This document shows, piece after piece, positions 4,014-44,522 of a DNA stretch of 64,000 nucleotides. Numbering within the stretch: the stretch's first letter is position 1; the number at the start of each line of letters is the position of its first letter. A model generated the notes under the pieces. It saw only the letters and a list, made by a program, of their open reading frames with translations, searched no databases and was not told where the DNA came from. The translations under genes and the position numbers were made by a program. The DNA comes from Paraspadella gotoi. Its lineage: Eukaryota; Animalia; Chaetognatha. Location of the stretch: the NCBI GenBank assembly GCA_051294375.1, contig CM119265.1, positions 18,130,764-18,194,763 of the forward strand, given 5' to 3'.

Positions 4014-4224
4014 TATGTCAATGACAGAACCGTTCAATATAAGCAGTCCCTGAGCTTCGGATCAGGCTGTAACACCATGTTACAGGCGGGTTAAGCGCCC
4101 CGTCCCTCTTAACTGCTAGGAGGCCACCGGGCTAGAACCCCGGACCTTAGGGTTGGGAGGCGAATGACTTGCCTCCGGCACCAATGACCGCTGATGAACG
4201 GTTGGTGGATTTTGGTCCACCATA
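4014..4224 (-). mobile_element. Solo LTR-like unit (family C) with tRNA-like head and twister ribozyme
   Basis: GC-rich island in AT-rich DNA. Minus strand starts TATGGTGGA-ccaaaa-TCCACC (terminal hairpin) and ends TGACATA. A-box-like TGGTGCCGGAGG and T-arm/B-box CCGGGGTTCTAGCCCGG precede the twister. Module order matches the TRIM LTRs. No clean TSD. Confidence 0.65.
4042..4117 (-). ncRNA. Twister ribozyme, P5-type permutation
   Basis: Minus strand: AGCAGU(P5)-UAA-GAGG-GA-CGG-GGCGCU-UAA-CCC-GC-CUGUAAC/GUUACAG(P3)-CCUGA-UCCGAAGC-UCAGG(P4/L4)-G-ACUGCU(P5). L4 CCG pairs with CGG (pseudoknot). P2 is one base short, possibly a sequencing deletion. Confidence 0.75.
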
Positions 4225-8989: not shown

Positions 8990-11710
8990 TTGGCGAAAAA
9001 TCCAGGCAAAGCGATCGAGGCGACCAAAAGCGTCCACTACGGCCGCGGACGGGCGGTGCCGTTTCGACGGCCAGCGTTCCACCCCTGTCGACCCGCCTCC
9101 ACTGCCGCTGACGACGGTTTCTCGAGTCCGAGTAGGAAGTAACGAAGATCGGCCGGTTCCGGATTTCCAACGCGCCGCGACCTTGAGGCGCGGGACCACG
9201 ACGTTAGCGTAACGCCCGTGCCGGCGACTCCGCTTCAGGCGCAAAGTCAGGGTCCGAGGCGCTGGTGAACATTTCGGCGGCAGGAGGAGGGCGGACGTGT
9301 CGATCCAACGTCGGGAGCAGCGCCGCGACGACAACTTTGCCCACTGTGAGGAAACCGTCTTCCATCATGAACAGTGCGACGAGGGAGAGCGGGACCGCTG
9401 GTCGGCGCGGAACGACGCCAAACGTGATTCCTGGCGGACTCACGTGGTAGTTTTCTCTTCAGCTACTCTTCTAATCATCGCCATTCATCCTTAGGCTCCG
9501 CAGTCGTCCAAGTGAGATCCATCGGTCAATCGAACGTCGTAGTTAATCATAGTTATCATCATCATCATCATATCATCATCATCATCTCCGTCATCATCAT
9601 CAGGCCATAATGGCTTCAAGAATACTTCAATCCTCTGCAGCCGAGGGTTGGAAATCGTGAGTCTGCGTAGATTAGTTTCTTTTAAATAATTGAAGTCATC
9701 AAACAGACAGACAGGCAAACGAGAGCAAGCAGGCTTTTAGACCCATTTCACTTTGAAAGGGAACGATTTCCTCGCCGGTGTCGGAACAAAAATAAGTTAA
9801 TCTACCCAAAATGGAAGGACGTGCTTGTCGTCTCGACGAATATACGCGGAGAGCGGCGTTGCTCGACGAAGAGGGCGAGGAGGAGCTGGACGTGGACGTG
9901 GAGGACCGAGGAGGAAGAGGATGAGAAAGAAGAGGGCGGGAGAAGGCGAGGAGCGGCGCAGCCTTTACCGAGATCCGACGACGGAGGGAGAAGACGAAGA
10001 AGATGAAGAGGAGGCACGCAGAAGCAAAGCTGGTCAGAAGCCTTTGGCTTAGGTATCAGTTAAATTGCGAGTATATGTGAAATTTAGTGACAACCAAATG
10101 CTTACAAATTAATCGTGTATCCATTTTAAATGAGCTCATTGCCCCTGGCTTGGACAATGGGGACAGGATATAGTGGGTTAAAGGCCGTCATCCCTTTTTA
10201 CAAAAATATCACATACATAGCAGCTTTTAATACGTCATTTTATTATAAATTATACATTATAAAATAGCTAATGCTAAATATGGTAAGAATTGGCAAAAAC
10301 ATTTACGAATACTGTTAGAATGAAATGCTTATGGCATACGGGAGGTAGCCTGTGATACCCGGACGCGGGGTATCACAACTGGCCGATCCTTAGGGCTGCG
10401 GGACCTCAGTGACCGACCTCCGTGCACTGGCCGATGTTATACCGGCACCGTGGGTTAGAGCTCATCTAACTAATGCCAGATCTATTGGACTCCGAAGGCA
10501 TTGTAGTTGTAATATACAGATATATTCCGTCACTGGCCACATCACGCATAGAAGCGGAATATTCGTGGAGAGGCGTCCTGCGGCGTGTGATGTATTCTAG
10601 CCGCTGGCGTTACAAACACATAGACACGAGGCCCGCGCGAAAGACGTGAACAGCAGTGATGGCAGCTTTTAAGGTCTTGCTGCCACACATGTAGCCATAG
10701 ATGCAAATAATCAACTCTCTAACGACCCTTTTCCACCTCAGGTTAAAAAAAAGTCCACCCAACTGACTCTCAATGATCCTCGTCGGCGTTCAATCCTTGA
10801 TTTGCTTGACGCGCCGTTTCTTGGGCTTCGAGCGCCGTTTTCGATGTTTGGCGGCGTCCGTCGGCGTCGTCTTCCTGGGTCTCGCTCGGGACGCGCCGCG
10901 CGATCGGACGGCCGCATGTGCGAGCGCTCTTGGCTATGGGTGATGTTTTATGCAACGCACGGATGAGGCGATCTGGTGGTTCAAATCGAAGGACAAGAAG
11001 CGGGAGCCGGGGTGGTACGAGAACGTTTGCTGGGTTGGTGGCTCAGTGACGGAGAGTCGATCGGTTGTCGAGATTACGGCGCTTAAGATAACGATATTTT
11101 CTTTAAAAAAAATATGTATGTTTCATTAAAAATCAGCATACTAGATCTCCAAATTACTGTTAAATTGGTTAGACTTTAGAAGAAAAAAAAAACATCAATT
11201 AGGTCTAGGTCCCATACAGCCCACACGGGCCGCCGCTAACGTACGCAGCGTCCTGGATTAACAAGAAGAACGCCAACCCAGCAACAAAAAAAAAAAAAAA
11301 AAAAAAAAAACAAAAAAAAAAAACAAAAAAAAAAAAAAAAAAAAAAAACAAAAAAAACTATTCCCGCTTTCAATTAGTCTATCGGATAATTGTACTGTGA
11401 TACTTTATTAAATTTTTGTTACCATGTTTGTTTAAGCTTTCACAAGCCAATCTCCGTTGACACACAAAATAATTTCACTCCTTAATTTTCTCCCTTTAAA
11501 TTTTTTTTTCTTTTCCTTTTCTTCTCTCCATTTCTTTTTCACTCCTAACTACCTTTCCTATTTCCTAATTGCCTTAAACTTCCTGATAAATCTTCACCAC
11601 GAACTTTCACACTAACTTCCGTCGTGGCAATCTTCTCATTCCTACGAGTTCGCTTTACAGTCACCTACTCTCCCTCCTCTCTTCTCTCCTCCTCTCTCTC
11701 TTCTCTCTCT
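8990..11710 (+). repeat. Direct duplicate of 26730-28880 (3' exons of the large membrane-protein gene), rich in insertion errors
   Basis: Colinear by eye, e.g. tccaggcaaagcgatcgaggcgaccaaaag vs tccagcaacgatcgagcgaccaaaag; ends ...GGTGGCTCAGTGA at 11049. Confidence 0.9.
10330..10687 (-). mobile_element. Second, noisy copy of the family B solo LTR
   Basis: TATGGC...GCCACA termini at the same intronic site as 27917-28171. Twister P3/P4/L4 remnants at 10379-10479. The middle is garbled and longer. Confidence 0.7.
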
Positions 11711-19049: not shown

Positions 19050-19814
19050 GGTGTGATCGCGTAGTAATCCAGTGGATATGCGGCCGCGACTAAATAATCC
19101 CATCGGATCTCTCTGCGCGTTCTACGTGATTGATGTGAGATTCTGCTAAATTCTTTAAACTGTAATTGCGGCTCGTCAAAAGATTGTTAAATTCCTGATC
19201 CACAGTTAATCATTAAAACGAAGTTGCCTTATCAACGAACCTTTGGGACCACGCTCGGAAGTGAAGCGTCAACTGGACCAGGCGTTTTGAAGAAAAGCAG
19301 CACCTTCTAACCATCCAGGTGAATAAATCCGATCGAACCGATAAAGATCGCTTCAGAAGTCAGACCGGAACCGAATCCAACTGTTCTTTTGTTTTTCAGG
19401 CGAGAAGGAATGGGAAACGGGTCCGACAGCGGCTTTCGCGGCGCGGAAGACACGTCCTTTCCTTGGGACGTCGTGAGCAACGTCGGTATCTATAGAGGCG
19501 CAAGGAATTCCCTTGGGCAAAATCCGTTGCATGCACACTTCGGGCTTCCTTCACAATTTTCTTATCTTGCTACAGGTTGTGCAAAATAAATTTTCTAAAC
19601 TTTTCTCATCATTACGTCGAGTCATTTCTTTAATTTGTATAATTTAGAGCACCGACCGGATGACCTACGACATTCTCTCGACCTCTGGTGACAACAACGA
19701 AGCGACGGCTCATAAATCGTTGCAAGTTGTTGCGATTTGATGGAGAATGCTGGAGACGAGGACAGGGAAGACGATCTTCGCTCCGTCTTAAGGAGAAATG
19801 GAATCGACTTGTGA
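19050..19814 (+). pseudogene. 5'-truncated duplicate of the acyltransferase (last four exons only)
   Basis: PVDMRPRL, LWDHAREVKRQLDQAF, VVSNVG and ...RRNGIDL* exons; cut at the duplication junction, so lacks HHxxxD. May be an assembly artefact. Confidence 0.65.
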
Positions 19815-20063
19815 AACTTCGTTTCATAATTAAATAAATTTGTATTATTTTAGGATTCATCTTATGTGTTGACCAAATAGTGTTTGACTTATAGTATTTT
19901 ACTTCAGATTTTTCAAATCTCATACGTAGTACGTGTGCTATTCTTATAAGACAAATTAAATTTGTAGAATATTTTTACCAAATAAAACGAAAAGGGGAAA
20001 CATCCAATTACGAATTTTTTTTTTTATTTTCTCAAAGTTTCCGTTTCGAAGTCAGATTAAAGC

Positions 20064-23000
20064 GACGTCGTTAAGTCGTTGTCAAATTGTTCTTGCCGCC
20101 ATCGTGGCCATTATCTTCACTGATGTCGTCGTAAGGGTTAAAAAGGAAGTTCTTGAGGGAGTTAGAAGATGGATACAGAAAAGAGAGAGAGAGGGGATAA
20201 CTCCCCATCGAAAAAGAAGAAAAATAACAAAATAACACATAGATAAGCTTAAGACTAGAGAACTGTGCATATTGTATTACCTCCTTTCACTTCTTCTTCC
20301 ACCACAGACAACGACGAGTCTCGACTTGGACGATCTCGACGCTCGACTCTGTGAAGCGAAGATCGGACAACCTCCTCCTCATGATCTCAGCCTTGAAGTC
20401 TTCCGAAACGTTTCGCACCGCAAGCGACGCCCATCGGGAATCCTTACCGGCTTCGGATTAGCGTTTGCTGACAATTACGGTCGCGTCGACCGGAAGTTTT
20501 TTCGCGGCGCCCGAGATTACTGGCACCGCCGATCGCGGACGACATTATGGCATTCAAGAAGTCAACGGACCGGTGCCGGTCGTAGCTTTGAGACCGAGGT
20601 CGTTTCCGGTCTTCAAGGAGCCGCTTCGTCTTTGGACCAACGAAGCGGCGAGGGCGGTTTTCGAGATATTCCAGAATCGAAAACAATTCTTTCGAAAGTC
20701 AGTATCTCTCAGAGCCCGACAAGGATGTCTTCGGCGCCAACCGGAACGATATCGGCGCTCCTTCGTCTCGAAATGGCGCGGGTCGATACACAATGCCCGC
20801 TACAGCGCTGAAAAGACGCCGGCGTCGCAACGTTGACGACGACGCCGCAACGTCGTCGACGCTCGACAGCGATCGAGAGTTGGACGAAATGTTCGAGAGA
20901 AGTTTGTCGTCGCTGCGCGGCATCATGGACAGAGTGAAGGAGAAGTTGAGGAAAGACGAGGAGTCGAAGAAGAGATGGGAGGCGTCGGTTTGGGTAGAAG
21001 GGAGAGGGAAAGGAGGGGGGGAGATGGAGAAGAGAAGAGAGATAAGAGAAGAAAGGGAGGATCGGAGGCTGGAGAGAAGTAAAGAAGAGGGAGATTGAGG
21101 AAGAAAGGAGATTTAGAGAGAGAGGACGAGAATGAGAGGATGAGAGAATTGAAGAGGGAGAAGAAAATTCGAGGGAAAAGAGAATTGAAGGAGAGAGGCT
21201 GACGGAGCGAGAAAGGAAATGGAAAAAGAAGAGAGAGAAGCGAATGGAGAAAAACGAGGAGGGAATGACGTCACTATCCCGCCAGTTATCTTTACTCAAT
21301 CTTATGGAGAAGCAGAATTCAACGACGGAGATGCGTGGTATGCGTGATGGCAGACATGTTTCGCCGAAGAAAACACTGGGAGTTGATAGAGGAAAGAGAA
21401 AACTGTTCTCCAGAGAATTGGCAAGAAGGACACAGGCTATTGAGAACGAGCCGTCTTGGGAGAACGAAGCGTTGAGGGAGAACGAGACATCGATGGAGAA
21501 CGGTTGCCGCAGGAATCCAATTTTATCGCCTCACATCTCCCGACGACGACGACGCAACGACGAAGACGCCAGAACGTTCGACGAAAGCGACGAAGCTGCC
21601 GTCAGAGGACGCGTTCGTTCCTGTTTGGCCGGACGCGATGACGACGACGACACCAGCGACGACGAGGGTAGCAAGATCGTGGAGGCGGTGAGGAGGTGGA
21701 GGAAGAGGAGGAGATGAGGAGGAGGATTGAAGAGCGAGGAGAGAGTCGCCATCGACGACGACGACGACGGACGACGACGGGCGACGTTGGAATCGGTCGA
21801 TGAAGACGACGGAAATGGAGAATTTGGGACGAGAAATCCGGAATCTACGACGAGCGGCCGAAAAGGTGCGCGGAAGGAAGAAGGCGCATGGAGTCGCCAC
21901 GCGTGCAGAGGAGTTAAAGAGAAGGAAGTGATCGATGGAAGTAAGGAGGTTGGTCACCTCGAAGGAAGAAGCGTAGTCGTGAGATATAAGAGGCAAACCA
22001 AACGGAGAAAGAACCCGTTTGTAAGCGAAGCGTTAGACGTGTTGAAAAAGAGCAAAAAATCCGATCAGATTAGTCACTTACCCGTTCGAATCGAAGAAAA
22101 CCTGATTGCGAAAGAAACGAACAGCCATCGTCGGCATTAGAGTAGATGAAACGAGACCGCTTTGGACGAAGAGACGCAGCTTCCGAAGGATCCTCGGAGC
22201 CTTGGAGAATCGAGGGATTATCACCGACTACACCGGCGACGTCCTCGACATCAACGCCAACAACAACAACTTGGACGCCGAGGGGCGTAACGACTGGCGG
22301 CGTCGTCGACGGAAAAAAGTTCCGTCGTGGAATCCGAGTCGAATCGAGAGTAAATCCGAGTCGGTGGCGCCGGATTCCGTGGCCGACGGAGCCGTGATGA
22401 GCATCGCGTCGTCAAAAACGGAAGAGTCTCGAAGTCGTCAGGCCTAAAATCCGTAAAAGGCCCACCGATCTCGACGCGGAGCTACACCAAGGTCACTGAG
22501 ATGGAATGCGACAAGGCGAAGGAATTTAGATCGCCGGAGAGTGGCTCGATGCCGAGGCCCTCGAGAAACGCTTCCACAAATCGCAACAACCCCTACAGTC
22601 CATCGACGAGCGGCTCGAGCGTCGGGGAGTCGTTTCAGGCGCTTCTTTTTCTGACGGAGGAGTTTTAAGGAACCGGATGGAATCGGAGATCGCGCATCCT
22701 CGACATCGTCGGTGAATGAAAGGAGGGAACAAATGGAACAAATGGAACAATGGAAGGATCGGCCCAAATATGGGAGAGACAGAAAACAACGACCAAGGGG
22801 ATGGAAACGTCTATGCACGCGATGGACGATGACGGCCAGGACTCTGAACAGGGTGAGTAAATTTCGTTGAGATTCTTGTGATGTTCGTAAGGTGAAACTT
22901 AATGTTTTAAAACTTTAATAAACTTTAAATTTAAAACTTTCAAGAAATAGTAATTCCTGAGAAAATTTAGCTTTTAATCATTATTAATCCTTATTATTGT

Positions 23001-25685
23001 GTCAATCTTTCTTTTTTGTTGTTTGTGTGATATAGGGAAACACGAACGTTTTAATCGGTAACTACAAAGATTGTTATTAATTAAATTATTTTTATTAGTA
23101 AATTTAAATAAATTTATTTGATTTAGTTAAAATGTCTATGAAATGCTTTGCCGAAAAAATTTTGTCAAATGACACATTGTGGCGGTATATTCACACCGCC
23201 TCACATCCAGCTTTGCACCAACCCAAGCGTTACGTTCTTCCACAATTTTAAAGTTTTCCTCTTCGTTGGCAAAGTGAGGCCGTCCTAGGGTTACTGAGGG
23301 TCGGAAGCCGCAAAGCCAACAGTGAGATGCCCCATCCCAAATGGGCATCACAGGCAACCCGGCTGTTTCAGTAATTAAAAGATTTTTTTTTTCCTTTGAC
23401 GCTTTTTCAAATAATTTATATTACGAGTTATTTCCAATTTTAATTTCAGCGCCTATTCAAACCACCACCCAAACTATTGAATATCCCGTACCGAATGAGA
23501 CGGTGGACGGCGTCGCGAACCGACGGGCTCTGAGGAACCTGACCCCGGCAAGGCGCCTGTTCAAGCGCCCATCGAGGAACCTCCAGGAATCTATTCGAGA
23601 CCCTGCAAAGCCCCTGAAAAAGTGCCCAATGAGGAGCCTTCGAAGGAATCTTTCGGGGTTCTCTCTCAAAGCATCTCTCCAGAGTCTGTCGCTAATCAGA
23701 AGGACGCCAAATTAATGGCAGATTTCTGGGGAAACACGCAAAGCTCCATCGGACAAGACGGCCCAACGGGAAATAATCAAGCAGGTGCGTCTGCGGAAAT
23801 CGTCGGCCTGTGAAGAGTAAAGCGTAGCAAAAATAATGAAATCAAGTAGAATCAAAATTCGAATAGTAGATCATGAAGAGGCTTGTACCACTGAACATTT
23901 TTTAAATAAAAAAAAATTTATTTATTCATTCTATATTTATACTTAGTACTCATCATAGAAAATGTCCAAAGTTTTAAAAAGGTTTTTCTTATTTTGAAAG
24001 CAGATTCGACTTCTTCACGAAGAATTGATAAAAGAAAATGTAACTTTTTTTAAAAAAATTATTTCATTAAGTCGGTCAAAATCCTAAAAAAACTGTTACA
24101 GTTATCCATAATTAAATTTTAAAATAAAAAATATAGTTTTTTTAATTTTTAGCTAACTTTATGAAAGAATTTTTGATTAAGACTCATATTTTCTTTTATC
24201 AACTTTTTTAAGGAATTCAATTCTGCTTCGAAACTTTTTTAAAAATTTTTGAATTTGGGCGAGTACTATGTACTCTGATATAAATATAGGCTAATGCGAA
24301 AATTGAGAAGTGTGGCGGTATATTCACACCGCCTCACGTCCACCATCCTTCAGCCAAATCCATTGGCTCAGAGGGGGAACACACCATCCCAAGTGTAGTG
24401 TTCCATCCACAGTCCTAACGACTTCCCTCTGCGTTGGCAAAGCGGAGACCGTCTAGGGTAACCCGCCAGTGACTGGAGGCGTCACTGAGGGTCGAAGCCC
24501 CCAAAGCCAACAGTGAGATGCCATCCCAATGGGCATCACAGGCAACCGGCCTGTTGCCATAAGTGGTGAGCCCTACTATCGATAACACGCAACCTTTTCA
24601 GGGTACGCTACGACAAAACGCTATGCCCCTGGGGTACGCTACGACAAACGCCTATGCCCCTGGGGTACGCTACGACAAAAACGCCTATGCCCCCACAACT
24701 TCGCGCTCTCTCTCTCTCTCCCCTATATGGTAACAGTCTTGTCGACACCTCTCAGGCTTGAGGAACCTGAGTGATGTCTTGGCCCCGGGGATCTGTGGCG
24801 GTATATTCAACACCGCCTCACGTCCACCATCCTTCAGCCAAATCCATTGGCTCAGAGGGAACACACCATCCCAAAGTGTAGTGTTCCATCCACAGTCCTA
24901 ACGACTTCCCTCTGCGTTGGCAAATCGAGACCGTCCTAGGGTAACGCGCCGTGACTGGAGGCGTCACTGGAGGGTCGGAAGCCCCCAAGCCAACATGAGA
25001 TGCCCCCATCCCCAATGGGCATCACAGGCAACCCGGCTGTTCCATAGAAGTTAAATTTTTTTTTATATATAAATGTTCTTTAATACAAATGGTTCATGAT
25101 CATTGATCAACTATTCGAATTTTGATCTGCAACTTCACGATGCTTTAGTGAAGAGTGATGAAGCAGATGGCCCGGCCAAGCAGAGAACCATTGGAACTCC
25201 AGCCAGTCCCAAGAGGACATCTTGTCCGGAGTACCTCGAGGTCGCGCCTCGAGTAAGTCTGACGTCGGCGCCCTGAAGCATGGCACTCGTCCAAGCCTTT
25301 CTCAAGCGCGCCAAAGCAACAGCGGTCCTCGATGGACGGTCGGGCGGGCTGCGTCATGCGAAGGACTACCAGACCACGGAGGATCGGGTGGGCATTAATA
25401 GAGTGATTTAGTCAGTAGGTTGAGTATCTCAGTACCTTTAAATGTAACACTGTTCGATTTTTTTGCCGGATCGCTTCCAATTCATTTTGTCGGTCCATCG
25501 GTCCGCCCCCAAAAATCTTTTCGGTAAACACTAGATCATGTCAGATCATCGAATTATGATAAATTTGTGGGTGGGTGTGTTTTTTGGTTTTCTGCAGTTA
25601 ATCGTAGAAAGTAGAAAATAGCTAATATGTAGAAGACATTTGGCCGACCAGTGCTAGTCGGTTGGCACAAGAATTGCATGTAGAG

Positions 25686-25728
<43 letters not shown>

Positions 25729-28484
25729 TATAAAACGTCAGATTTTTTGTACAGAATTCACTCTCGCATTCCCGCTCAATATATGTCGATTATCAATTAT
25801 TCTATGTCTCTTTAACTACAGTTCATACATTATTATAGTTAATAGTTAATAATAAAAGTAGAAAATAGCTTTCGTGAGTTTGAAACTTTTAATCAGTTCC
25901 TCCTTTACAAGCCGCCACGAAGATGGATCAGCCAGGGAATGAGCAGAACGGGCGAAGAAGGAAGACAACAATTCGAGCGATGTAATTAAAATTATTATCA
26001 TATTTTAAAAAAAAAAAATGGTGAGAATTTTGAACTTATTTTTTTTATCCTTTTCATCGTTCGCACTCTTCCTTTTCCCACAAACCCTTTATTCTCCAAT
26101 GTCCAGTCTTCCTCACACAATCGATCACCTTCACCCAAACTTCGACGTCGAATCCAACTCGGAGTTGGAGGACGTCCGCACCCGACGATCCATGCGGAAC
26201 CTCGATGGCCAAGGGGCGGAAGTCCGGTCGCGCCCGAGCACAACGGCTTCGGTCCGCTGGGCCTCGTTGCCCCGGGAAAAGCATTGACTCCCAGCGTGTC
26301 TCCATAGACCATGGCGTAGAGATACGAAGACACGTTGCGGGAATCAGAAAAGAGGCCGACCGGAGCGCTGAAGAAACAGTTGTCTCTTTTCCCATTTACA
26401 TAATCAAAGGTGGCTGGATGTCTGGGAATAGATGGGGACTGTTGTAAAATATAGTTGAAGGGAAAGTTAAACATTGAACTAAAGGAATTAAAATTAATCT
26501 AACAGACCCTAGATCCGTTATCAAGATGTTTCAAGTGGTTACTACATAGAAAGCAAAAACAATTTAATTCAGTTCACAGATGAAAAAAAAATCAACATAT
26601 ATTACTAATACCACAAACTATTCGTCACCCCAAGCAGACCAACCGTCGTGAATAAGGACCGTCTCTCGTCGCAGCGACTCTCGCGACCGCAGAGTCCGTC
26701 TCCGAGACCCAACGTTCCCTCGCGCGAGCGAAAAATCCAGCAACGATCGAGCGACCAAAAGCCGTCACCTCGGCGCGGACGGCGGCGTCGACGGCCAGTC
26801 ACCCCGTCGACCCGCTCCACCGCGACTCGTTCTCGAGTCGAGGGAAAGTAACGAAGATCGGCGTTCCGATTTCCAACGCGCCGCGACCTTGAGCGCGGGA
26901 AGTAGCGCCGGCCGTCGCGAAAAGTCGCCGATGCGCGGTGATGAATTTGTGCGGCAGGAGGAGGGGCGGACGTGTCGATCCAACGTCGGGAGCAGCGCCG
27001 CCGACGACAACTTTGCCACTGTGAGAAACCGTCTTCCACATGAAATTCGACGAGAGAGCGGGACGCTGGCGGCGCGGAACGACGCCAACGGATTCCTGCG
27101 GACTCCGTGGAGTTTCTTCAGTCTTCTAATCATCGCCATTCATCTTGGGCGCGCAGTCGTCAAGTGAGATCCATCGGTCATCAACGTCGTAGTTCTCATA
27201 GTAATCATCATCATCACATCATCATCCATCATCATCTCCGTCATCATCATCAGGCTAAGCTTCAAAAACTTCAATCTCTGCAGCCGAGGTGAATCGTGTC
27301 TGCGTTAGATTAGTTCTTTTAAATATTTTGAAGTCATCAACAACAGACAGGCAAACAGACAAGCAGGTTTTTAAGACCCATGTCACTTTGAAAGGGAACG
27401 TTTTCCTCGCGGTGTCGGGAACAAACATAGTCTTTAATCTCCCAAAATGAAGGACGTCGCTGTCGTTCGACGATACGCGAGAGGGCGTTGCTCGACGAAG
27501 AGGGCGAGAGGAGGTGGACTGGACGTGGAGGCGAGGAGGAAAGGATGAGAAAGAAGAGGGCGAGAAGGCGAGGAGCGGCGGAGCCTTTACCGAACCGAGA
27601 GGGAAAGACGAGGAAGATGAAGAGAGGCTGCAGAAGAAGCTGGTCAGAGCCTTTGGCTTTAGTTCAGTTAATGCGAGTATATGAATTGGTACAAACCAAT
27701 GTACAAATTATCGATTCATTTAAAAAAATGAGCAATCTTTGCCCCTGGCTTTGGGACAATGACAGGATATAGTGGGTAAGCCGTCATCCCTTTTACAAGA
27801 TAATATCATAACATAGCAGCTTTAATACGTCATTTATTATTAAATTATACATTAAAAATAGTAATGTAAAAATGGTTAGAATTGCAAAACATTACGAATA
27901 CTGTAGAATGAAATGTTATGGCAAGGAGGATAGCCTGTGATACCGGGACGCGGGTATCTCACTAACTGGCGTAGGGGCCTGCGGACCCTCAGTGACCGCC
28001 TCCCTTCACTGGCATGTTTATACCGGCACCGTCACATTTAAGCCAGAACCGGGAATACCCAGGGATTGAACCCGGGACGCACGGATGGAATGAGATGATT
28101 TAAGCCTGCTCAGCCATTGAACGAGGCTGAGGACGGACAGCAGGAGGCAGCTTTAAGTCTTGCTTGCCACATGTAGCCATTTGCAAGATAAATCAACTCT
28201 CTACCAACCCTTTCCACCTCCAGGTAAAAAAAGCACACTGACTCTCATGATCCTCGTCGGCGTCGAACCTGATTTGCTTGACGCGCCGTTCTTGGCTTCG
28301 AGCGCCGTTTCGATGTTGGCGGCTCGTCGGCGTCGTCTTCTGGTCTCGCTCGGACGCGCGATCGACGCGCGGTGGCGGCGCTTGGAGTTTATGCACGCAC
28401 GGATGGGCGATCTGGTGGTTCAATCGAGACAAGAAGCGGGAGCCGGGGTGGTACGAGACGTTGCTGGGTTGGTGGGCTCAGTGA
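20064..28484 (+). CDS. Large multi-exon low-complexity protein with C-terminal TM helix (left-arm copy)
   Basis: Inverted copy of 29240-37560 with more frameshifting errors. Confidence 0.6.
23178..23373 (+). mobile_element. Degenerate solo LTR of family A with deleted twister core
   Basis: Starts TGTGGCGGTATATTCACACCGCC. Retains GTTGGCAAA, CCGTCCTAGGG, GGGTCGGAAGCC and GCCAAC, but lacks the P2 5' strand and P3. Confidence 0.85.
24433..24511 (+). ncRNA. Twister ribozyme (P5-type) in 5' LTR
   Basis: GUUGGC/GCCAAC P5, GACCG, UAA, CAGUGAC/GUCACUG P3, GGG-UCG(G)AAGC-CCC; single-base deletions relative to the right-arm copy. Confidence 0.7.
24916..24994 (+). ncRNA. Twister ribozyme (P5-type) in 3' LTR
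   Basis: Same motif: GACCG-UCCUAGGG-UAA...GGG-UCGGAAGC-CCC...GCCAAC. Confidence 0.7.
27917..28171 (-). mobile_element. Solo LTR (family B) in the last intron; insertion polymorphism
   Basis: Element-strand termini TGTGGC...GCCATA, as in family A. Probable ATGT TSD. Absent at the equivalent site 29555-29558. A-box TGGCTGAGCAGG and B-box GGGTTCAATCCC. Confidence 0.85.
27966..28046 (-). ncRNA. Twister ribozyme (P5-type) in family B solo LTR
   Basis: CUGGC(P5)-UUAA-AUGU(P2)-GA-CGG-UGCCGGUA-UAA-ACAU(P2)-GC-CAGUGA/UCACUG(P3)-AGGG-UCCGCAGGC-CCCU-AC-GCCAG(P5). P2 and the pseudoknot are fully compensated relative to family A. Confidence 0.78.
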
Positions 28485-29239
28485 CGAGAGTCGATCGGTG
28501 TCGAGAACGGCGCTTAAATAACGATATTCTTTAAAAAATATTATGTTTCATAAAAAAAAAGTTTATGTTAAATTGTAGACTTTAGAAGGAAAAAAAAAAC
28601 ATTTCAATTAGTCTATTACTGTGACTCTTAAATTGTAACCATTTGTAGCTTTGAGTTGACAATAATTTCACTCCTTTAATCTCCCTTAAATTTTTTTTTT
28701 CTTTTCCTTTCTTCCATTTCTTTTTCATCCTATCCTTTCCTTTCCTTCCTTAAATTTCCTTAATCTTCACACGAATTCACACTAACTTTCGGGCAATTCT
28801 CATCCTACGAGTTCCTTACGTTCCTCTCTCTCTCTCTCTCTCTCCTCTCTCTTCCTCTCTCTCTCTCTCTCTCCTCTCCAANNNNNNNNNNNNNNNNNNN
28901 NNNNNNTAGGATGAGAATTGCCCGAGAAGTTAGTGTGAAGTTCGTGTGAAGATTAAGGAAATTTAAGGAAAGGAAAGGAAAGGATAGGACTGAAAAAGAA
29001 ATGGAAAAGAAAGGAAAAGAAAAAAAAATTTAAGGGAGATTAAAGGAGTGAAATTATTTGTCAACTCAAAGCTACAAAATGGTACAATTTAAGATCACAG
29101 TACATAGACTAATTGAAATGTTTTTTTTTTCTTCTAAAGTCTACCAATTTAACATATCACTTTTTTTTATGAAACATAATATTTTTTTAAAGAATATCGT
29201 TATTTAAGCGCCGTAATCTCGACAACCGATCGACTCTCG

Positions 29240-31808
29240 TCACTGAGCCCACCAACCCAGCAACGTCTCGTACCACCCCGGCTCCCGCTTCTTGTCTTCG
29301 AATTGAACCACCAGATCGCCCATCCGTGCGTGCATAAACTCCAGCGCCGCCACCGCCGCGTCGATCGCGGCGTCCGAGCGAGACCAGGAAGACGACGCCG
29401 ACGACGCCGCCAACATCGAAACGGCGCTCGAAGCCAAGAAACGGCGCGTCAAGCAAATCAGGATGACGCCGACGAGGATCATGAGAGTCAGTGTGGCTTT
29501 TTTTACCTGGAGGTGGAAAAGGGTTGTTAGAGAGTTGATTATCTTGCAATGGCTACATTTCATTTTACAGTATTCGTAATGTTTTTGCCAATTCTTAACC
29601 ATTTTTACATTACCTATTTTATAATGTATAATTTAAATAATAAAATGACGTATTAAAAGCTGCTATGTTATGTTATATTATCTTGTAAAAGGGATGACGG
29701 CCTTAACCCACTATATCCTGTCCATTGTCCAAAGCCAGGGGCAAGATTGCTCATTTTTTTAAATGAATCGATAATTTGTACATTGGTTGTACCAATTTCA
29801 TATACTCGCAATTAACTGAACTAAAGCCAAAGGCTCTGACCAGCTTCTTCTGCTGCCTCTCTTCATCTTCCTCGTCTTCTCCCTCGTCGGTCTCGGTAAA
29901 GGCTCCGCCGCTCCTCGCCTTCTCCGCCCTCTTCTTTCTCATCCTCTTCCTCCTCGCCTCCACGTCCACGTCCACCTCCTCCTCGCCCTCTTCGTCGAGC
30001 AACGCCCTCTCCGCGTATTCGTCGAGACGACAAGCGACGTACCTTCATTTTGGGAAGATTAAGTTTATGTTTGTTCCCGACACCGCGAGGAAATCGTTCC
30101 CTTTCAAAGTGACATGGTGTTTAAAAGCCTGGCTTGTCTGTTTGCCTGTCTGTCTGTTTGATGACTTTCAAATTATTTAAAGAAACTAATCTAACGCAGA
30201 CACGATTTCACCTCGCTGCAGAGATTGAAGTATTTTGAAGCTTAGCCTGATGATGATGACGGAGAGTGATGATGGTGATGATGATGATGATGATGATGTA
30301 TGACTATGATAACTACGACGTTGATGACCGATGGATCTCACTTGACGGACTGCGCGCCAAGATGAATGGCGATGATTAGAAGTACTGAAGAAACTCCACG
30401 GGAGTCGCCAGGAATCCGTTGGCGTCGTTCCGCGCCGCCAGCGTCCGCTTCCTTCGTCGATTTTCATGTGGAAGACGGTTTCCTCACAGTGGGCAAAGTT
30501 GTGTCGCGGGTGTTCCGGTTGGATCGACACGTCCGCCCCTCCTCCTGCCGCACAAATTCATCACCAGCGCCATCGGCCGACTTTCGCGACGCCGGCGCTA
30601 CGTCCCGCGCCTCAAAGGTCGCGGCGCGTTGGAAATCGGAACCGCCGATCTTCGTTACTTTCCTCTCGACTCGAGAAACCGTCGTCGCGGTGGAGCGGGT
30701 CGACGGGGTGGAACTGGCCGTCGACGCCGCCCGTCCGCGCCGAGGTGACGGCTTTTGGTCGCTCGATCGTTTGCTGGATTTTTCGCTCGCGCGAGCGGAA
30801 CGTTTGGTCTCGGAGACGGACTTGCGGTCGCGAGAGTCGCTGCGACGAGAAGACGGCTCCTTTTCACGATCGGTTGGTTCTGCTTGGGGTGACGAATAGT
30901 TTGGTGTGTATTTAGTAATATATTGTTGATTTTTTTTCATCTGTGAACTGAATTAAATTGTTTTTGTCTTTCTATGTAGTAACCACTTTGAAACATCTTG
31001 ATAACGGATCTAGGGCTCTGTTAGATTAAATTTTAATTCCTTTAGTTACCCAATGTTTTAACTTCCCCTTCAACTATATTTTACAACAGTCCCCATCTAT
31101 TTCCCAGACATCCAGCCACCTTTGATTATGTAAATGGGAAAAGGAGACAACTGTTTCTTCAGCGCTCCGGACGGCCTGCTTTTCTGATTCCCCGCAAACG
31201 TTGTCTTCGTATCTCTACGCCTCTGGTCCTTGGAGACACGCTGGGAGTCAATGCTTTTCCCGGGCAACGAGGCCCAAGCGACCGAAGCCGTTGTTGCTCG
31301 CGGCGCGACCGACTTCCGCCCCTTGGCCATCGAGGTCCGCATGGATCGTCGGGTGCGGACGTCCTCCAACTCCGAGTTGGATTCGACGTCGAAGTTTGGG
31401 TGAAAGGTGATCGATTGTGTGAGGGAAGACTGGACATTGGAGAATAAAGGGTTGTGGAAAAGGAAGAGTGCGAACGATGAAAAAGGATAAAAAAATAAGC
31501 TTCAAAATTCTCAACCATTTTTTTTTTTAAATATGATAATAATTTTAAATTACATCGCTCGAATTGTTGTCTTCCTTCTTCGCCCGTTTCTTGCTCATTC
31601 CCTGGCTGATCCATTCTTCGGTGGCGGCTTGTAAAGGAAGGAACTGATTAAAAGTTTCAAACTCACGAAGCTATTTTCTACTTTTTATTATTAACTATTA
31701 ACTATATTAATGATATGAACTGTATTTAAAGAGACATAGAATAATTGATAATCGACATATATTGAGCGGGATTCGAGAGTGAATTCTGTACAAAAAATCT
31801 GACGTTTT

Positions 31809-31848: not shown

Positions 31849-34800
31849 CTACATGACAATTCTTGTGCCAAACCGACTAGCCACTGGGTCGGCCAAATGT
31901 CTTCTACATATTAGCTATTTTCTACTTTCTACGATTAACTGCAGAAAAACCAAAAAACACAACCCACCCACAAAATTTATCATAATTCGATGATCTGACA
32001 TGATCTAAGTGTCTTACCGAAAAGATTTTTGGGGCGGGACCGATGGACCGACAAAATGAATTGGAAGCGGATCCGGCAAAAAATTCGGAACAGTGATTAC
32101 CATTTAAAGGTAACTGAGATACTCCAACCTACTGACTAAATCAACTCTATTAATGCCCACCCGATCCTCGTTGGTCTTGGTAGTCCTTCGTCAATGACGA
32201 GCCCCGCCCGACCGTCCCCATCGAGGACCGCTGTTGCGTTTGGCGCGCTTGAGAAAGGCTTGGACGAGTGCCATGCTTCAGGGCGCCGACGTCAGACTTA
32301 CTCGAGGCCGGCGACCTCGAGGGTACTCCGGACAAGATGTCCTCTTGGGACTTGGCTGGAGTTCCAATGGCTCCTGCTTTGGCCCGGCCATCTGCTTCAT
32401 CACTCTTCACTAAAGCGTCGTGAAAGTTGCAGATCAAAATTCGAATAGTTGATCAATGATCATGAACCATTTTGTATTAAAGAACATTTATATATAAAAA
32501 AAAAATTAACTTCTATGGCAACAGCCGGGTTGCCTGTGATGCCCATTGGGGATGGGGCATCTCACTGTTGGCTTGGGGGCTTCCGACCCTCAGTGACGCC
32601 TCCAGTCACTGGCGCGGTTACCCTAGGACGGTCTCGTTTGCCAACGCAGAGGGAAGTCGTTAGGACTGTGGATGGAACACTACACTTGGGATGGTGTGTT
32701 CCCCCTCTGAGCCAATGGATTTGGCTGAAGGATGGTGGACGTGAGGCGGTGTGAATATACCGCCACAGGATCCCCGGGCCAAGACATCACTCAGGTTCCT
32801 CAAGCCTGAGAGGTGTCTGACAAGACTGTTACCATATAGGGGAGAGAGAGAGAGAGCGCGAGTTGTGGGGGCATAGGCGTTTTTGTCGTAGCGTACCCCA
32901 GGGGCATAGGCGTTTGTCGTAGCGTACCCCAGGGCATAGGCGTTTGTCGTAGCGTACCCTGAGAAGGTTGCGTGTTCGATAGTAGGGCTCACCACTTATG
33001 GCAACAGCCGGGTTGCCTGTGATGCCCATTGGGATGGGGCATCTCACTGTTGGCTTTGGGGGCTTCCGACCCTCAGTGACGCCTCCAGTCACTGGCGCGG
33101 TTACCCTAGGACGGTCTCCGCTTTGCCAACGCAGAGGGAAGTCGTTAGGACTGTGGATGGAACACTACACTTGGGATGGTGTGTTCCCCCTCTGAGCCAA
33201 TGGATTTGGCTGAAGGATGGTGGACGTGAGGCGGTGTGAATATACCGCCACACTTCTCAATTTTCGCATTAGCCTATATTTATACAGAGTACATAGTACT
33301 CGCCCAAATTTCAAAATTTTAAAAAAGTTTCGAAAGCAGAATTGAATTCCTTAAAAAAGTTGATAAAAGAAAATATGAGTCTTAATCAAAAATTCTTTCA
33401 TAAAGTTAGCTAAAAATTAAAAAAAACTATATTTTTTATTTTAAAATTTAATTATTGGATAACTGTAACAGTTTTTTAGGATTTTGACCGACTTAATGAA
33501 ATAATTTTTTTTAAAAAAAGTTACATTTTCTTTTATCAATTCTTCGTGAAGAAGTCGAATCTGCTTTCAAAAATAAGAAAAAAACCTTTTTAAAACTTTG
33601 ACATTTTCTATGATGAGTACTAAGTATAAATATAGAATGAATAAATAAATTTTTTTTATTTAAAAATGTTCAGTGGTACAAGCCTCTTCATGATCTACTA
33701 TTCGAATTTTGATTCTACTTGATTTCATTATTTTTGCTACGCTTTACTCTTCACGAGGCCGACGATTTCCGCAGACGCACCTGCTTGATTATTTCCCGTT
33801 GGGCCCGTCTTGTCCGATGGAGCTTGCGTGTTTCCCCAGAAATCTGCCATTAATTTGGCGTCCTTCTGATTAGGCGACAGACTCTGGAGAGATGGCTTTG
33901 AGAGAGAACCCCGAAAAGATTCCTTCGAAGGCTCCTCATTGGGCACTTTTTCAGGGGCTTTTGCAGGGTCTCGAATAGATTCCCTTGGAGGTTCCTCGAT
34001 GGGCGCTTGAACAGGCGCCTTGCCGGGGTCAGGTTCCTCAGAGCCCGTCGGTTTCGCGACGCCGTCCACCGTCTCATTCGGTACGGGATATTCAATAGTT
34101 TGGGTGGTGGTTTGAATAGGCGCTGAAATTAAAATTGGAAATAACTCGTAATATAAATTATTTGAAAAAGCGTCAAAGGATAAAAAAAATCTTTTAATTA
34201 CTGAAACAGCCGGGTTGCCTGTGATGCCCATTGGGATGGGGCATCTCACTGTTGGCTTTGCGGGCTTCCGACCCTCAGTAACCCTAGGACGGCCTCACTT
34301 TGCCAACGAAGAGGGAAAACTTTAAAATTGTGGAAGGAACGTAACGCTTGGGTTGGTGCAAAGCTGGATGTGAGGCGGTGTGAATATACCGCCACAATGT
34401 GTCATTTGACAAAATTTTTTCGGCAAAGCATTTCATAGACATTTTAACTAAATCAAATAAATTTATTTAAATTTTACTAATAAAAATAATTTAATTAATA
34501 ACAATCTTTGTAGTTACCGATTAAAACGTTCGTGTTTCCTAATATCACACAAACAACAAAAAAGAAAGATTTGACACAATAATAAGGATTTAATAATGAT
34601 TAAAAGCTAAATTTCTCAGGACATTACTATTTCTTGAAAGGTTTTAAATTTAAAGTTTATTAAAGTTTTAAAACATTAAGTTTCACCTTACGAAACATCA
34701 CAAGAATCTCAACCGAAATTTACTCACCCTGTTCAGAGTCCTGGCCGTCATCGTCATCGCCCATCGCGTGCATAGACGTTTCCATCCCCTTGGTCGTTGT

Positions 34801-35806
34801 TTTCTGTCTCTCCCATATTTGGGCCGATCCTTCCATTTGTTCCATTTGTTCCATTTGTTCCCTCCTTTCATTCACCGACGATGTCGAGGATGCGCGATCT
34901 CCGATTCCATCCGGTTCCTTAAACTCCTCCGTCAGAAAAAGAAGCGCCTGAAACGACTCCCCGACGCTCGAGCCGCTCGTCGATGGACTGTAGGGGTTGT
35001 TGCGATTTGTGGAAGCGTTTCTCGAGGGCCTCGGCATCGAGCCACTCTCCGGCGATCTAAATTCCTTCGCCTTGTCGCATTCCATCTCAGTGACCTTGGT
35101 GTAGCTCCGCGTCGAGATCGGTGGCCTTTTACGGATTTTAGGCCTGACGACTCGAGACTCTTCCGTTTTTGACGACGCGATGCTCATCACGGCTCCGTCG
35201 GCCACGGAATCCGGCGCCACCGACTCGGATTTACTCTCGATCGACTCGGATTCCACGACGGAACTTTTTTCCGTCGACGACGCCGCCAGCTCGTTACGCC
35301 CCTCGGCGTCCAAGTTGTTGTTGTTGGCGTTGATGTCGAGGACGTCGCGGTGTAGTCGGTGATAATCCCTCGATTCTCCAAGGCTCCGAGGATCCTTCGG
35401 AAGCTGCGTCTCTTCGTCCAAAGCGGTCTCGTTTACATCTACTCTAATTGCCGACGATGGGCTGTTCGTTTCTTTCGCAATCAGGTTTTCTTCGATTCGA
35501 ACGGGTAAGTGACTAATCTGATCGGATTTTTTGCTCTTTTTCAACACGTCTAACGCTTCGCTTACAAACGGGTTCTTTCTCCGTTTGGTTGCCTCTTTAT
35601 TCTCACGACTACGCTTCTTCCCTTCGAGGTGACCAACCTCCTTACTTCCATCGATCACTTCCTTCTCTTTAACTCCTCTGCACGCGTGGCGACTCCATGC
35701 GCCTTCTTCCTTCCCGCGCACCTTTTCGCCGCTCGTCGTAGATTCCGGATTTTCTCGTCCCAAATTCTCCATTTCCGTCGTCTTCATCGACCGATTCCAA
35801 CGTCGC

Positions 35807-35844
<38 letters not shown>

Positions 35845-37560
35845 GGCGACTCTCTCCTCGCTCTTCAAATCCTCCCTCCTCATCCTCCTCCTCTTCCTCC
35901 ACCTCCTCACCGCCTCCACGATCTTGCTACCCTCGTCGTCGCTGGTGTCGTCGTCGTCATCGCGTCCGGCCAAACAGGACGAACGCGTCCTCTGACGGCA
36001 GCTTCGTCGCTTTCGTCGAACGTTTCTGGCGTCTTCGTCGTTGTCGTCGTCGTCGTCGGGAGATGTGAGGCGATAAAATTGGATTCCTGCGGCACCGTTC
36101 TCCATCGATGTCTCGTTCTCCCTCAACGCTTCGTTCTCCCAAGACGGCTCGTTCTCAATAGCCTGTGTCCTTCTTGCCAATTCTTCTTGGAGAACAGTTT
36201 GTCTCTTTCCTCTATCAACTCCCAGTGTTTTCTTCGGCGAAACATGTCTGCCATCACGCATCCACGCATCTCCGTCGTTGAATTCTGCTTCTCCATAAGA
36301 TTGAGATAAGATAACTGGCGGGATAGTGACGTCATTCCCTCCTCGTTTTTCTCCATTCGCTTCTCTCTCTTCTTTTTCCATTTTCCTTTCTCGCTCCGTC
36401 AGCCTCTCTCCTTCAATTCTCTTTTCCTCGAATTTTCTTTCCTCCTCTTTCAATTCTCTCATCCTCTCATTCCTCGTCCTCTCTTCTCTAAATCTCCTTT
36501 CTTCCCTCAATCTTCCCTCTTCTTTACTTCTCTCCAGCCTCCGATCCTCCCTTTCTTCTCTTATACTCTCTTCTCTTCTCCATCTCCCCCCCTCCCTTTC
36601 CCTCTCCCTTCTACCCAAACTCGACGCCTCCCATCTCTTCTTCGACTCCTCGTCTTTCCTCAACTTCTCCTTCACTCTGTCCATGATGCCGCGCAGCGAC
36701 GACAACTTCCTCTCGAACATTTCGTCCAACTCTCGATCGCTGTCGAGCGTCGACGACGTTGCGGCCGTCGTCGTCGTCAACGTTGCAGACGCCGGCGTCT
36801 TTTCAGCGCTGTAGCGGGCATTGTGTATCGACGCCGCGCCATTTCGAGACGAAGGAGCGCCGATATCGTTCCGGTTGGCGCCGAAGACATCCTTGTCGGG
36901 CTCTGAGAGATACTGACTTCGAAAAGAATTGTTTTCGATTCTGGAATAATCTCGAAAACCGCCCTCGCCGCTTCGTTGGTCCAAAGACGAAGCGGCTCCT
37001 TGAAGACCGGAAACGACCTCGGTCTCAAAGCTACGACCGGCACCGTCGTTGACTTCTTGAATGCCATAATGTCGTCCGCGATCGGCGGTGCCAGTAATCT
37101 CGGGCGCCGCGAAAAAACTTCCGGTCGACGCGGCACCGTAATTGTCAGCAAACGCTAATCCGAAGCCGGTTAAGGATTCCCGATGGGCGTCGCTTGCGGT
37201 GCGAAACGTTTCGGAAGACTTCAAGGCTGAGATCATGAGGAGGAGGTTGTCGATCTTCGCTTCACAGAGTCGAGCGTCGAGATCGTCCAAGTCGAGACTC
37301 GTCGTTGTCTGTGGTGGAAGAAGAAGTGAAAGGAGGTAAATACAATATTGCACAGTTCTCTTAGTCTTAAGCTTATCTATGTGTTATTTTGTTATTTTTC
37401 TTTCTTTTTCGATGGGGAGTTATCCCCCTCTCTCTCTCTTTTCTGTATCCATCTTTCTAACTCCCTCAAGAACTTCCTTTTTTAACCTTACGACGACATC
37501 AGTGAAGATAATGGCCACGATGGCGGCAAGAACAATTTTGACAACGACTTAACGACGTCG
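29240..37560 (-). CDS. Large multi-exon secreted/membrane-type protein: E/R/K-rich coiled-coil and S/T/P-rich regions, C-terminal TM helix; function unknown
   Basis: 2.6-kb exon (ORF 34720-37353; acceptor CAG|ACAACG, donor GG|GTGAGT). An upstream hydrophobic exon reads KIVLAAIVAIIFTDVV|gtaag. Further exons at ~33780-34125, ~32160-32410, ~31120-31430, ~30340-30940 and ~29840-30040. The last exon is VKKATLTLMILVGVILICLTRR...WYETLLGWWAQ*. Start codon and the joining of all exons into one gene are uncertain. Confidence 0.6.
32567..32645 (-). ncRNA. Twister ribozyme in 3' LTR; predicted cleavage between 32620 (U) and 32619 (A)
   Basis: GUUGGC-AAAC-GAGA-CCG-UCCUAGGG-UAA-CCGC-GC-CAGUGAC..GUCACUG-AGGG-UCGGAAGC-CCCC-AA-GCCAAC. 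Confidence 0.75.
32868..32960 (-). repeat. Three ~31-bp tandem repeats inside the TRIM
   Basis: GGGGTACGCTACGACAAACGCCTATGCCCCT x3 (also ~24600-24693). Confidence 0.9.
33049..33130 (-). ncRNA. Twister ribozyme in 5' LTR; predicted cleavage between 33103 (U) and 33102 (A)
   Basis: GUUGGC-AAA-GCGG-A-GA-CCG-UCCUAGGG-UAA-CCGC-GC-CAGUGAC..GUCACUG-AGGG-UCGGAAGC-CCCC-AAA-GCCAAC. P2 is CCGC/GCGG. Pseudoknots are CGG/CCG and GC/GC. Confidence 0.8.
34199..34396 (-). mobile_element. Degenerate family A solo LTR (right-arm copy of 23178-23373)
   Basis: Same internal deletion as the left-arm copy, so the deletion is unlikely to be read noise. Confidence 0.85.
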
Positions 37561-37830
37561 CTTTAATCTGACTTCGAAACGGAAACTTTGAGAAAATAAA
37601 AACAAAAAATTCGTAATTGGATGTTTCCCCTTTTTGTTTTATTTGGTAAAAATATTCTACAAAATTTAATTTGTCTTATAAGAATAGCACACGTACTACG
37701 TAATGAGATTTGAAAAATCTGAAGTAAAAATACTATAGCTCACTTAATAAAGTCAAACACTATTTGGTCAACACATAAGATGAATCCTAAAATAATACAA
37801 ATTTATTTAATTGTAGTAATGAACAAAGTT

Positions 37831-42445: not shown

Positions 42446-42982
42446 TTTTCGTCGTCGCGCGAATCGCTCTTTTCGTTCGTCGGTTCCTCGTTCCTTCGTT
42501 CGTACATTCATCCGTTCTTTCGTTCGTTCGCGCCACGTACGAAGAAAATGAGAAACGACGCTTTGTAAAAGACGAGATTAAAGAAAGTTTTTTTTTTTTG
42601 TGATCGTTGAACGCGAACAATAAGCATAATGATGATATCCTTTTGTTTCAAATAAGAAAACTAAACATAAAAATGAAAAAGGAAAAAATAAAGGAACAAA
42701 ATTAATATAAAATAATAAAAATTATAATGCTTCTTTTGTGAATCTTTTAATCGCATAATTAACCAATTAATCATCAATCAATCATCCTCGAAATAATTAT
42801 TTAATAATTAAACTTATAATACTTTAAAAAAATGAAATTGGGTTTTGCGAGTCACGGGCAGACGCTTCTGAGATCGAGTCGCGATTCAATTCCTAGTCCG
42901 GATGTGACGGAGACCCGGATTACAGAAAAGGAGATCCGGGTTTTCGTAAAATCCGGTTGGTTATTAAAATTTAAAGTCAGTA

Positions 42983-44485: not shown

Positions 44486-44522
<37 letters not shown>

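Follow-up and report, generated by a model that had tools for sequence, protein, structure and literature searches.

Helenus-type miniature LTR elements in a chaetognath with tRNA-like promoter boxes upstream of a predicted type-P5 twister ribozyme

How a short, non-coding element with long terminal repeats (LTRs) might be transcribed, and how its RNA might be copied back into DNA without loss of the promoter, is the question raised by a group of repeats in the chaetognath Paraspadella gotoi. The window that we analyzed is a stretch of 64,000 nucleotides (assembly GCA_051294375.1, contig CM119265.1, positions 18,130,764 to 18,194,763 of the forward strand), and it holds a complete terminal-repeat retrotransposon in miniature (TRIM) of a family here called A, a solo LTR of a family B, and a third element, C. 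An earlier note on this DNA had quoted six motifs and claimed that tRNA-derived boxes of RNA polymerase III (Pol III) type lie inside the LTRs, upstream of a ribozyme fold. All six motifs occur exactly, at the places and on the strands that it gave, including a weak B-like motif of family A 35–36 nt downstream of the A box, and the claimed layout is borne out, the fold being a predicted type-P5 twister. Directly observable are the build of LTR, primer-binding site (PBS), internal part and LTR, the 4-bp target-site duplication (TSD), the tRNA-like spacing of the boxes, the compensatory changes in the predicted twister helices, the fixed order and distance of the parts, the high copy number, and a polymorphic insertion. 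We propose that these elements are TRIMs of the Helenus type in which a Pol III-type promoter would stand upstream of a predicted P5 twister, and that their RNA would be cut in both LTRs and pass through a circle to reverse transcription. Reading from sequence, we give this proposal roughly even odds (about 0.5).

The evidence comes from three independent heads (A, B and C), not seven. The locus is present twice in the window as inverted arms (19052–27916 and 38602–29555) that are 95% identical, and a third, partial reading of it lies at 9–11.6 kb. Logan contigs match the right arm almost exactly, so that the arms probably represent one locus read more than once, and family A is therefore counted once. 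Its four LTR copies represent one insertion, and a B-like insertion, D, is a probable re-reading of B. We rejected D as an independent family: its ends and its twister half resemble B, its middle lacks the boxes, and it is probably a noisy and unreliable third reading of the B locus. Of the sets of Logan contigs, X9 and X10 are presumed to be RNA; as contigs they carry no start, end, strand or level.

Family A has the build of an LTR retroelement. Its LTRs share 252 identities with 6 gap columns and have the ends TGTGGC...GCCATA, and the PBS fits, at 11 of its first 13 bases, the 3′ end of bee tRNA-Trp as printed in Fig. S2 of PMC10886601 (judged by eye). A spliced joint in X9 (32409–33781) places the TRIM within an intron, and another (29504–29839) does the same for the B site. 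By alignment, B is homologous to LTR A: the two share 169 identities, against a mean of 143 and a maximum of 155 after shuffling, and nhmmer links them at E = 4e-12. The B insertion is polymorphic at its site. It is present in one arm only, the mirror-arm site at about 29555–29559 being empty; an X1 contig spans this empty site, whereas breaks in X5 contigs at 29555 and 29559 indicate a filled allele with the 4-bp TSD ACAT, of which 3 bp are visible in the window itself. Family B is very abundant, as judged from contig depth (summed depth in X1 of about 4–6 × 10^5 against about 85 on the flanks, depth not being copy number). One X9 contig contains the B LTR sequence twice, with a joint from 28164 to 27975, which suggests a two-LTR element or a circle. 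Element C has no visible TSD and no nhmmer link to A or B, but its head is homologous to that of B from end to end, with an alignment at z = 5.7 that none of 1000 shuffles equals.

The A and B boxes of these heads appear to be tRNA-derived and likely form a Pol III promoter. From T8 to G53 the distance is 45 nt in both B and C, which is the spacing of an intron-less tRNA gene; in A it is 35–36 nt, and the A-family A box recurs in four LTR copies (24364+, 24848+, 33199− and 32714−), each with the weak B-like motif at that distance. We compared pattern counts with those in 200 block-wise Markov resamples of the window. An exact A box with a strict B box at 33–55 nt occurs once, in B (resample mean 0.005); an exact A box with the core GTTCnAnnC occurs five times, always within LTRs (mean 0.08, maximum 2); and a loose A box with the core occurs seven times, six of them in elements and one outside, at 29352 (mean 0.28, maximum 3). 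The segments between the boxes of B and C align at z = 2.8, a score reached by 13 of 1000 shuffles; for A the comparison is not significant. No 5S rRNA match appears in the Rfam scans, and the head is of the tRNA type.

The structure around the boxes has decayed to different degrees. The cloverleaf of B retains only a T-arm that still folds, the pairing of D-arm and acceptor being lost with both boxes kept, and a substitution at 28061 seen in Logan contigs gives this T-arm better pairing. In C an acceptor-like stem pairs in addition to the T-arm. In the head of A about 9 nt between the boxes are gone, and so is the T-stem, with G53-T54-T55-C56, A58 and C61 kept; that GTTCnAnnC survives the loss of the T-stem favors selection on the DNA box. 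The loops CTCCCAA in C and ATCCCAA in A presumably resemble the anticodon loop of a glycine tRNA. When the boxes are set against those of Helenus, B has TRGCY and GGTTC, with AGG in place of YGG; C has GGTTC and lacks TRGCY; and A has TRGCY, with TGTTC for GGTTC. On these letters B agrees with Helenus, and A and C agree in part. The loss of cloverleaf pairing with retention of both boxes in B is the same as that reported for Helenus (PMC10886601); here and below, statements on published systems apply to those parts of the cited papers that were available.

Behind the head, at a nearly constant distance (96 nt from T8 to the predicted cut in A and in B, 90 nt in C), lies the predicted twister. 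The Rfam twister-P1 model matches A in part (33097–33054, 15.2 bits against a gathering score of 67.2), covering GCC-P3-P4-L4, and upstream of this match the remainder of a P5-type permutation can be read. The fold runs P5, 3′ strand of P2, GA and a strand of T1, a short P1 hairpin, UAA, 5′ strand of P2, GC, P3, P4 with loop L4, and P5. With the published description of type-P5 twisters as a guide (PMC5408937), stems P2 and P4, pseudoknots T1 and T2 and the end in P5 are all found in the modeled folds of A, B and C. Pairing is kept through compensatory changes. For T1, B and C have CGG/CCG where A has CCG/CGG; for P2, A has GCGG/CCGC, B has ATGT/ACAT and C a stem of 3 bp; P3, P4 and P5 likewise differ in letters among the three and stay paired. 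Twisters have ten conserved positions; of the core letters, all three predicted folds retain UAA, L2 GC, L1 GA, and U and GC of L4, and B differs at one adenine of L4. The B twister region aligns with that of A at z = 8.9; a MAFFT alignment of the twister regions misplaces C and was set aside. A descriptor of the P5 twister picks out three sites in 64 kb, one per family: B, C and the 5′ LTR of A in the right arm. Not one of 200 resamples contains such a site. The predicted twisters of the two A LTRs sit 483 nt apart. An extra G in the L4 loop of B is missing from many copies in the contigs.

Other ribozyme classes were considered for the LTR. A hammerhead reading was dropped, both by eye and because no element has a CTGAnGA...GAAA match, and HDV-like, hairpin and pistol readings were examined by eye and dropped. 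Of two pattern scans of metagenomes, one gave no match and the other two, both chance matches in bacterial coding DNA; a pattern scan of viral contigs gave none. Between twister and LTR end there is a hairpin with a GA bulge (27962–27934, 33047–33016 and 23322–23354), which is kept with changed letters in A, in B and in A2, a shorter relative of LTR A, and is not found in C; possibly it serves in packaging or in primer annealing. Boxes and ribozyme core are missing together from A2, which has neither the A box nor A58 of the B box nor the twister core (UAA, P2 and P3); it contains two T4 runs and has no clear TSD.

A number of observations weigh against our proposal. Only three independent heads were examined, and both the box patterns and the twister descriptor were set after the sequences had been seen, which makes the resample test lenient. 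ARAGORN finds no tRNA gene in the window, and Rfam finds no tRNA at threshold, its only tRNA-like row being mascRNA at E = 8.1 on C. The A box of C lacks A14. The B box of A, TGTTC instead of GGTTC, is non-canonical, and its motif forms one side of a local RNA hairpin as well; both A boxes pair with an upstream strand, so RNA structure could account for some of the conservation. In the PBS of A there are two mismatches to the tRNA-Trp of another species, and no clear polypurine tract precedes the 3′ LTR: both arm copies have only a GGGGA run, with 7 of the last 15 bases purine, in what is one insertion in an error-prone assembly. As to the ribozyme, no Rfam twister model matches B or C, and none of the three receives a twister-P5 call. 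P1 is only 1–3 bp long, although P1 is dispensable in vitro (PMC5408937), and B has a C at the first of two consensus adenines of L4, which may lower activity. The other three LTR readings of A fail the descriptor, and P2 of the 3′ LTR twister is broken in both arms. Conservation of the boxes across copies, to which the earlier note had attached importance, holds in family B, where nine substitutions reach at least 3% in some run of the contigs and none of them falls in the A box or the B box; this family is so homogeneous, however, that such conservation is weak evidence. The same note's statement that the right-arm TRIM has no T4 run on its sense strand is true but carries no weight, since 42% of base shuffles also lack one, and the left-arm copy has one T4. 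In the AT-rich window 41 of 2258 windows of TRIM length are free of T4, and the low T content of the TRIM explains its scarcity of T4 relative to the window.

If the proposal is right, TFIIIC and Pol III would start about 7–10 nt before the A box, and transcription would pass both LTRs and end at a T run of the flanking DNA, where T4 runs lie 10–47 nt beyond each element. Each twister would cut at its U^A site and so release, from family A, a 483-nt monomer with a 5′-OH, a 2′,3′-cyclic phosphate and no terminal repeat. Cleavage in the 5′ LTR would strip off the promoter-bearing head, a consequence that the earlier note did not draw, and the mature RNA would begin with a 5′-OH at the twister site. 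A ligase of the RtcB type supplied by the host would close the monomer into a circle, and a Gypsy-type reverse transcriptase primed by tRNA-Trp would travel round it more than once, rebuilding both LTRs and the promoter, after which integrase would make the 4-bp TSD. The monomer folds at z = −2.9 when linear and −3.2 when circular (the latter against 40 shuffles). Reverse transcription round a circle, after circularization, is described for plant retrozymes (PMC4918200); RtcB closes the monomers of animal retrozymes in vitro, and tandem twisters yield circles in mammalian cells (PMC7229834). A ribozyme behind the head of a short interspersed nuclear element (SINE) truncates it (PMC5786205), for which reason the Schistosoma element Sm-alpha needs tandem copies (PMC6765202). 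An LTR element, by comparison, holds a head in its 3′ copy, and the promoter would thereby be restored despite the ribozyme behind it.

Alternative explanations differ in which part of this proposal they remove. The boxes could be relics of a SINE once present in the LTR, or RNA hairpins, and the elements could be twister retrozymes cut from host read-through transcripts of RNA polymerase II, for example from introns. Both A and B do lie in introns, the B-like motif of A and the A boxes take part in hairpins, C lacks A14, and a 2020 review says that retrozymes seem promoterless and rely on read-through. We nevertheless consider this somewhat unlikely, given that nothing in the B and C heads is kept as well as the boxes, the cloverleaf pairing being lost, that A retains the B-box core after loss of its T-stem, and that B is antisense to its host gene, whose transcript therefore cannot supply B RNA. 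Were Pol III retained and the circle given up, the 5′ twister would often escape cleavage and the 3′ twister would set the 3′ end, leaving a terminal repeat (R) of about 100 nt for strand transfer, with the ribozyme in place of a terminator or poly(A) signal. Standard LTR replication would then suffice and no ligase would be needed. Most hymenopteran Helenus LTRs have, by eye, a T run behind the T-arm, which is absent from the LTRs here, and the short P1 and the L4 change of B could slow cleavage. Against such a linear template stand the identical sequence of both ribozymes and the speed of twisters (PMC5408937), the full processing of a plant retrozyme primary transcript at the first ribozyme, and the fact that the damaged ribozyme of this A copy is the 3′ one; we regard it as unlikely.

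It is quite improbable, in our judgment, that the elements are ordinary Helenus TRIMs whose twister-like fold is inactive or a passenger and whose transcripts end at the T runs of the flank. The missing Rfam call, the deviations from consensus and the T4 runs 10–47 nt beyond the elements point that way, and fish Helenus LTRs mostly lack T4 with no ribozyme by eye. Compensatory changes in five helices and the pseudoknot, together with fixed letters of the catalytic core across three diverged families, are nonetheless hard to explain without selection on the fold. Chance matches of A/B-like motifs in GC-rich repeats are hardly credible as an explanation: the motifs are short and degenerate, and one loose pair lies outside the elements (29352), but diverged elements share strand, place and tRNA spacing, with 1–7 matches observed against resample means of 0.005–0.28. 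Chance is thus largely refuted for B and C, and less so for the B box of A. The reading that we prefer, Helenus-type TRIMs with a likely Pol III promoter, a predicted twister in each LTR and a probable circular intermediate, is the one carried forward below. Table 1 gives the positions of the features.

Table 1. Features of the elements in the 64-kb window, with predicted parts named as such.
Feature	Position	Strand	Remarks
Family A, complete TRIM, 739 bp	32514..33252	−	intron, sense to host gene
A, parts	5′ LTR 33252–32997 (256 bp); 3′ LTR 32767–32514 (254 bp)	−	internal part 229 bp; TSD GAAG
A, boxes of 5′ LTR	33155..33199	−	A box 33199–33188; weak B box core 33163–33155; spacing 36
A, predicted type-P5 twister of 5′ LTR	33050..33130	−	predicted cut between 33103 and 33102
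A, primer-binding site	32977..32994	−	starts (TGG) 2 nt after 5′ LTR
A, predicted cut-to-cut monomer RNA, 483 nt	32620..33102	−	one permuted LTR plus PBS
Family A TRIM, left-arm reading	24311..25046	+	not independent
A2, shorter relative of LTR A	23178..23373	+	mirror copy 34396–34200 (−)
Family B, solo LTR, 255 bp, TGTGGC...GCCATA	27917..28171	−	in intron, antisense to host gene
B, A box, tRNA-type (T8–G19)	28105..28116	−	pattern match, resample test
B, T-arm hairpin with B box GGTTCAATCCC	28058..28076	−	G53 at 28071, 45 nt from T8
B, predicted type-P5 twister	27966..28046	−	descriptor match; predicted cut between 28020 and 28019
B, 3′ hairpin	27934..27962	−	also in A and A2
Element C, about 211 bp, ends uncertain	4014..4224	−	A box 4183–4172; T-arm 4143–4127; spacing 45
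C, predicted P5 twister	4116–4043	−	predicted cut at 4093/4092
D, B-like insertion	10330..10689	−	same site, error-rich duplicate of locus

Several further features of family A and its surroundings were noticed. The tRNA-like complement at 32960–32994 appears to run about 30 nt past a normal PBS, and we take the stretch beyond the PBS to resemble the T-arm of tRNA-Trp. The point at which contigs with a different internal part diverge is 32966, and the extended stretch next to the PBS therefore appears to be shared. The internal part of A contains three tandem units of 30–31 nt, each capable of forming a hairpin (32868–32959 and 24601–24693). Since the TRIM lies in sense orientation in the intron spliced in X9 (32409–33781), the pre-mRNA would carry two predicted twisters, and an effect on splicing or mRNA yield is possible. 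Next to the A TRIM and to the B site lie AT-rich, high-depth repeats that resemble one another in inverted orientation (23870–24300, 33254–33720 and 29677–29802); they are possibly miniature inverted-repeat transposable elements into which the TRIM inserted.

In the remainder of the window, large duplications, both inverted and direct, pair 19052–28878 with 38602–28907 and 34689–47000 with 52488–64000, with a further one at 8993–11716. They differ mostly by small indels and are centred on N gaps; probably haplotypes or noisy long reads were placed next to each other in the assembly. Rfam gives no match at the gathering score anywhere in the 64 kb, and in E-value scans all rows except the partial twister-P1 match are at the level of chance; Pfam scans of 13 reading frames give nothing above the cut-off, and one homolog search likewise gave no result. 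Spliced genes, the 4-bp TSD and the type of PBS are in keeping with an animal host. An array of about 10 units occupies 45890–47140; each unit joins a conserved head of 30 nt to a CT microsatellite, which varies in length, and an AT-rich tail. A reading frame at 39097–39438 (−) without Pfam support has an HHxxxD-like motif, presumably akin to that of condensation or acyltransferase domains.

That TRIM LTRs can carry a tRNA-like promoter is already known from Helenus; the new part is the predicted twister behind it. Going further, it is possible, though we hold this more tentatively, that Pol III-driven LTR retrozymes exist outside plants, that ribozymes of different classes can replace one another in a fixed slot behind their tRNA promoter, and that such elements produce abundant circular RNA autonomously at thousands of loci and transpose by way of the circle. 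The slot would hold a twister of type P5 here and a type III hammerhead in the Helenus-2 elements of gall wasps, and it would be a natural counterpart to the engineered expression of circular RNA with twisters. If true, this would join TRIMp3 elements and retrozymes, which the literature keeps apart; it would give retrozymes a defined promoter, so far an open point, and eukaryotic twisters a second role, in making retroelement circles from LTR elements. It would also explain how a Pol III retroelement can have a ribozyme behind its promoter and yet retain that promoter, and published TRIM libraries may then hold overlooked ribozymes. The model predicts exact RNA ends and the circle junction.

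Among known systems, the elements most resemble Helenus (TRIMp3), described by Kojima (2024) as TRIMs with tRNA-derived A and B boxes in the LTRs, a PBS for a tRNA end and, in animals, a 4-bp TSD (PMC10886601). They share with it a non-coding TRIM of less than 1 kb (739 bp in A), boxes in each LTR, a lost cloverleaf, a PBS for a tRNA 3′ end and solo LTRs, and with animal Helenus in particular the 4-bp TSD (GAAG in A, ACAT in B). They differ in the position of the head, which lies in the 5′ half of the LTR with a predicted twister and then a hairpin behind it, in their weak polypurine tract, and in LTRs that end in TG...TA. Use of Pol III is unproven for Helenus as well, and in the available text of that paper the word ribozyme occurs only within the title of a reference. 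Two LTRs in its supplement (DataS1), Helenus-2_SyJa-LTR and Helenus-2_SyUm-LTR, contain behind a tRNA-like head a CTGATGA...GAAA core with three pairing stems, which by eye reads as a candidate type III hammerhead and goes unremarked in the available text. Both have a Trp PBS, and neither shows the T run after the T-arm that is typical of most other wasp LTRs (by eye). With a candidate hammerhead at the place of the twister, they are the nearest in layout to the elements here, a likeness judged by eye. The hammerhead core string occurs at five places in the available supplement, the two wasp LTRs and three fungal ones without evident partner; twister-type strings were not found there, in a text whose line breaks can hide matches.

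The earlier note had named Cassandra as the precedent, and Helenus fits instead. Cassandra and Ajax, as described in PMC10886601, do have an internal promoter of Pol III type in TRIM LTRs, but it is of the 5S type (box A, IE and box C) and no ribozyme is described there, and Cassandra terminates in the 3′ LTR; a 5S match is absent from our Rfam scans. The Schistosoma elements Sm-alpha and Sj-alpha, which are SINE-like, have a Pol III promoter upstream of a self-cleaving hammerhead (PMC6765202, PMC2770079), and their promoter comes to lie 3′ in the unit released by cleavage, as is predicted for our elements. They are non-LTR elements that need tandem copies to propagate, whereas here each new copy would regain the promoter through its LTR build. 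With type-P5 twisters the predicted folds share P1, P2, P4, optional P3 and P5, T1, T2, the U^A site and the end in P5 (PMC5408937), and they depart from known members by a very short P1, by non-consensus letters in T1 with compensation, and by the lack of recognition by Rfam. In the literature covered, twisters are tied to non-LTR elements of the RTE type and not to LTRs; twister variants of Perere-3 are an example (PMC8501958). A ribozyme-bearing TRIMp3 or a twister in an LTR was not found in the literature covered, which left most subscription journals and Repbase outside.

The LTR retrozymes of plants (PMC4918200, Cervera 2016; PMC9695139; PMC7761336) are the closest parallel in mode of operation: each LTR has a ribozyme, there is a PBS and a 4-bp TSD, the element is non-coding, and the cut-to-cut monomer lacks an R repeat. 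In one plant retrozyme LTR, promoter activity upstream of the ribozyme has been demonstrated. The differences concern the ribozyme (a predicted twister P5 here, a type III hammerhead there), the promoter (tRNA type here, none described there in the available text), the primer (Trp-like here, tRNA-Met there) and the monomer (483 nt and 59% paired here, 600–1000 nt and highly paired there). In the parts available, LTR retrozymes are treated by reviews and by a 2026 preprint as mainly plant elements bearing hammerheads, and animal retrozymes as non-LTR. The elements described here are thus probably a group of Helenus-type TRIMs that works like an LTR retrozyme, yet stands outside the retrozymes by the class of its ribozyme.

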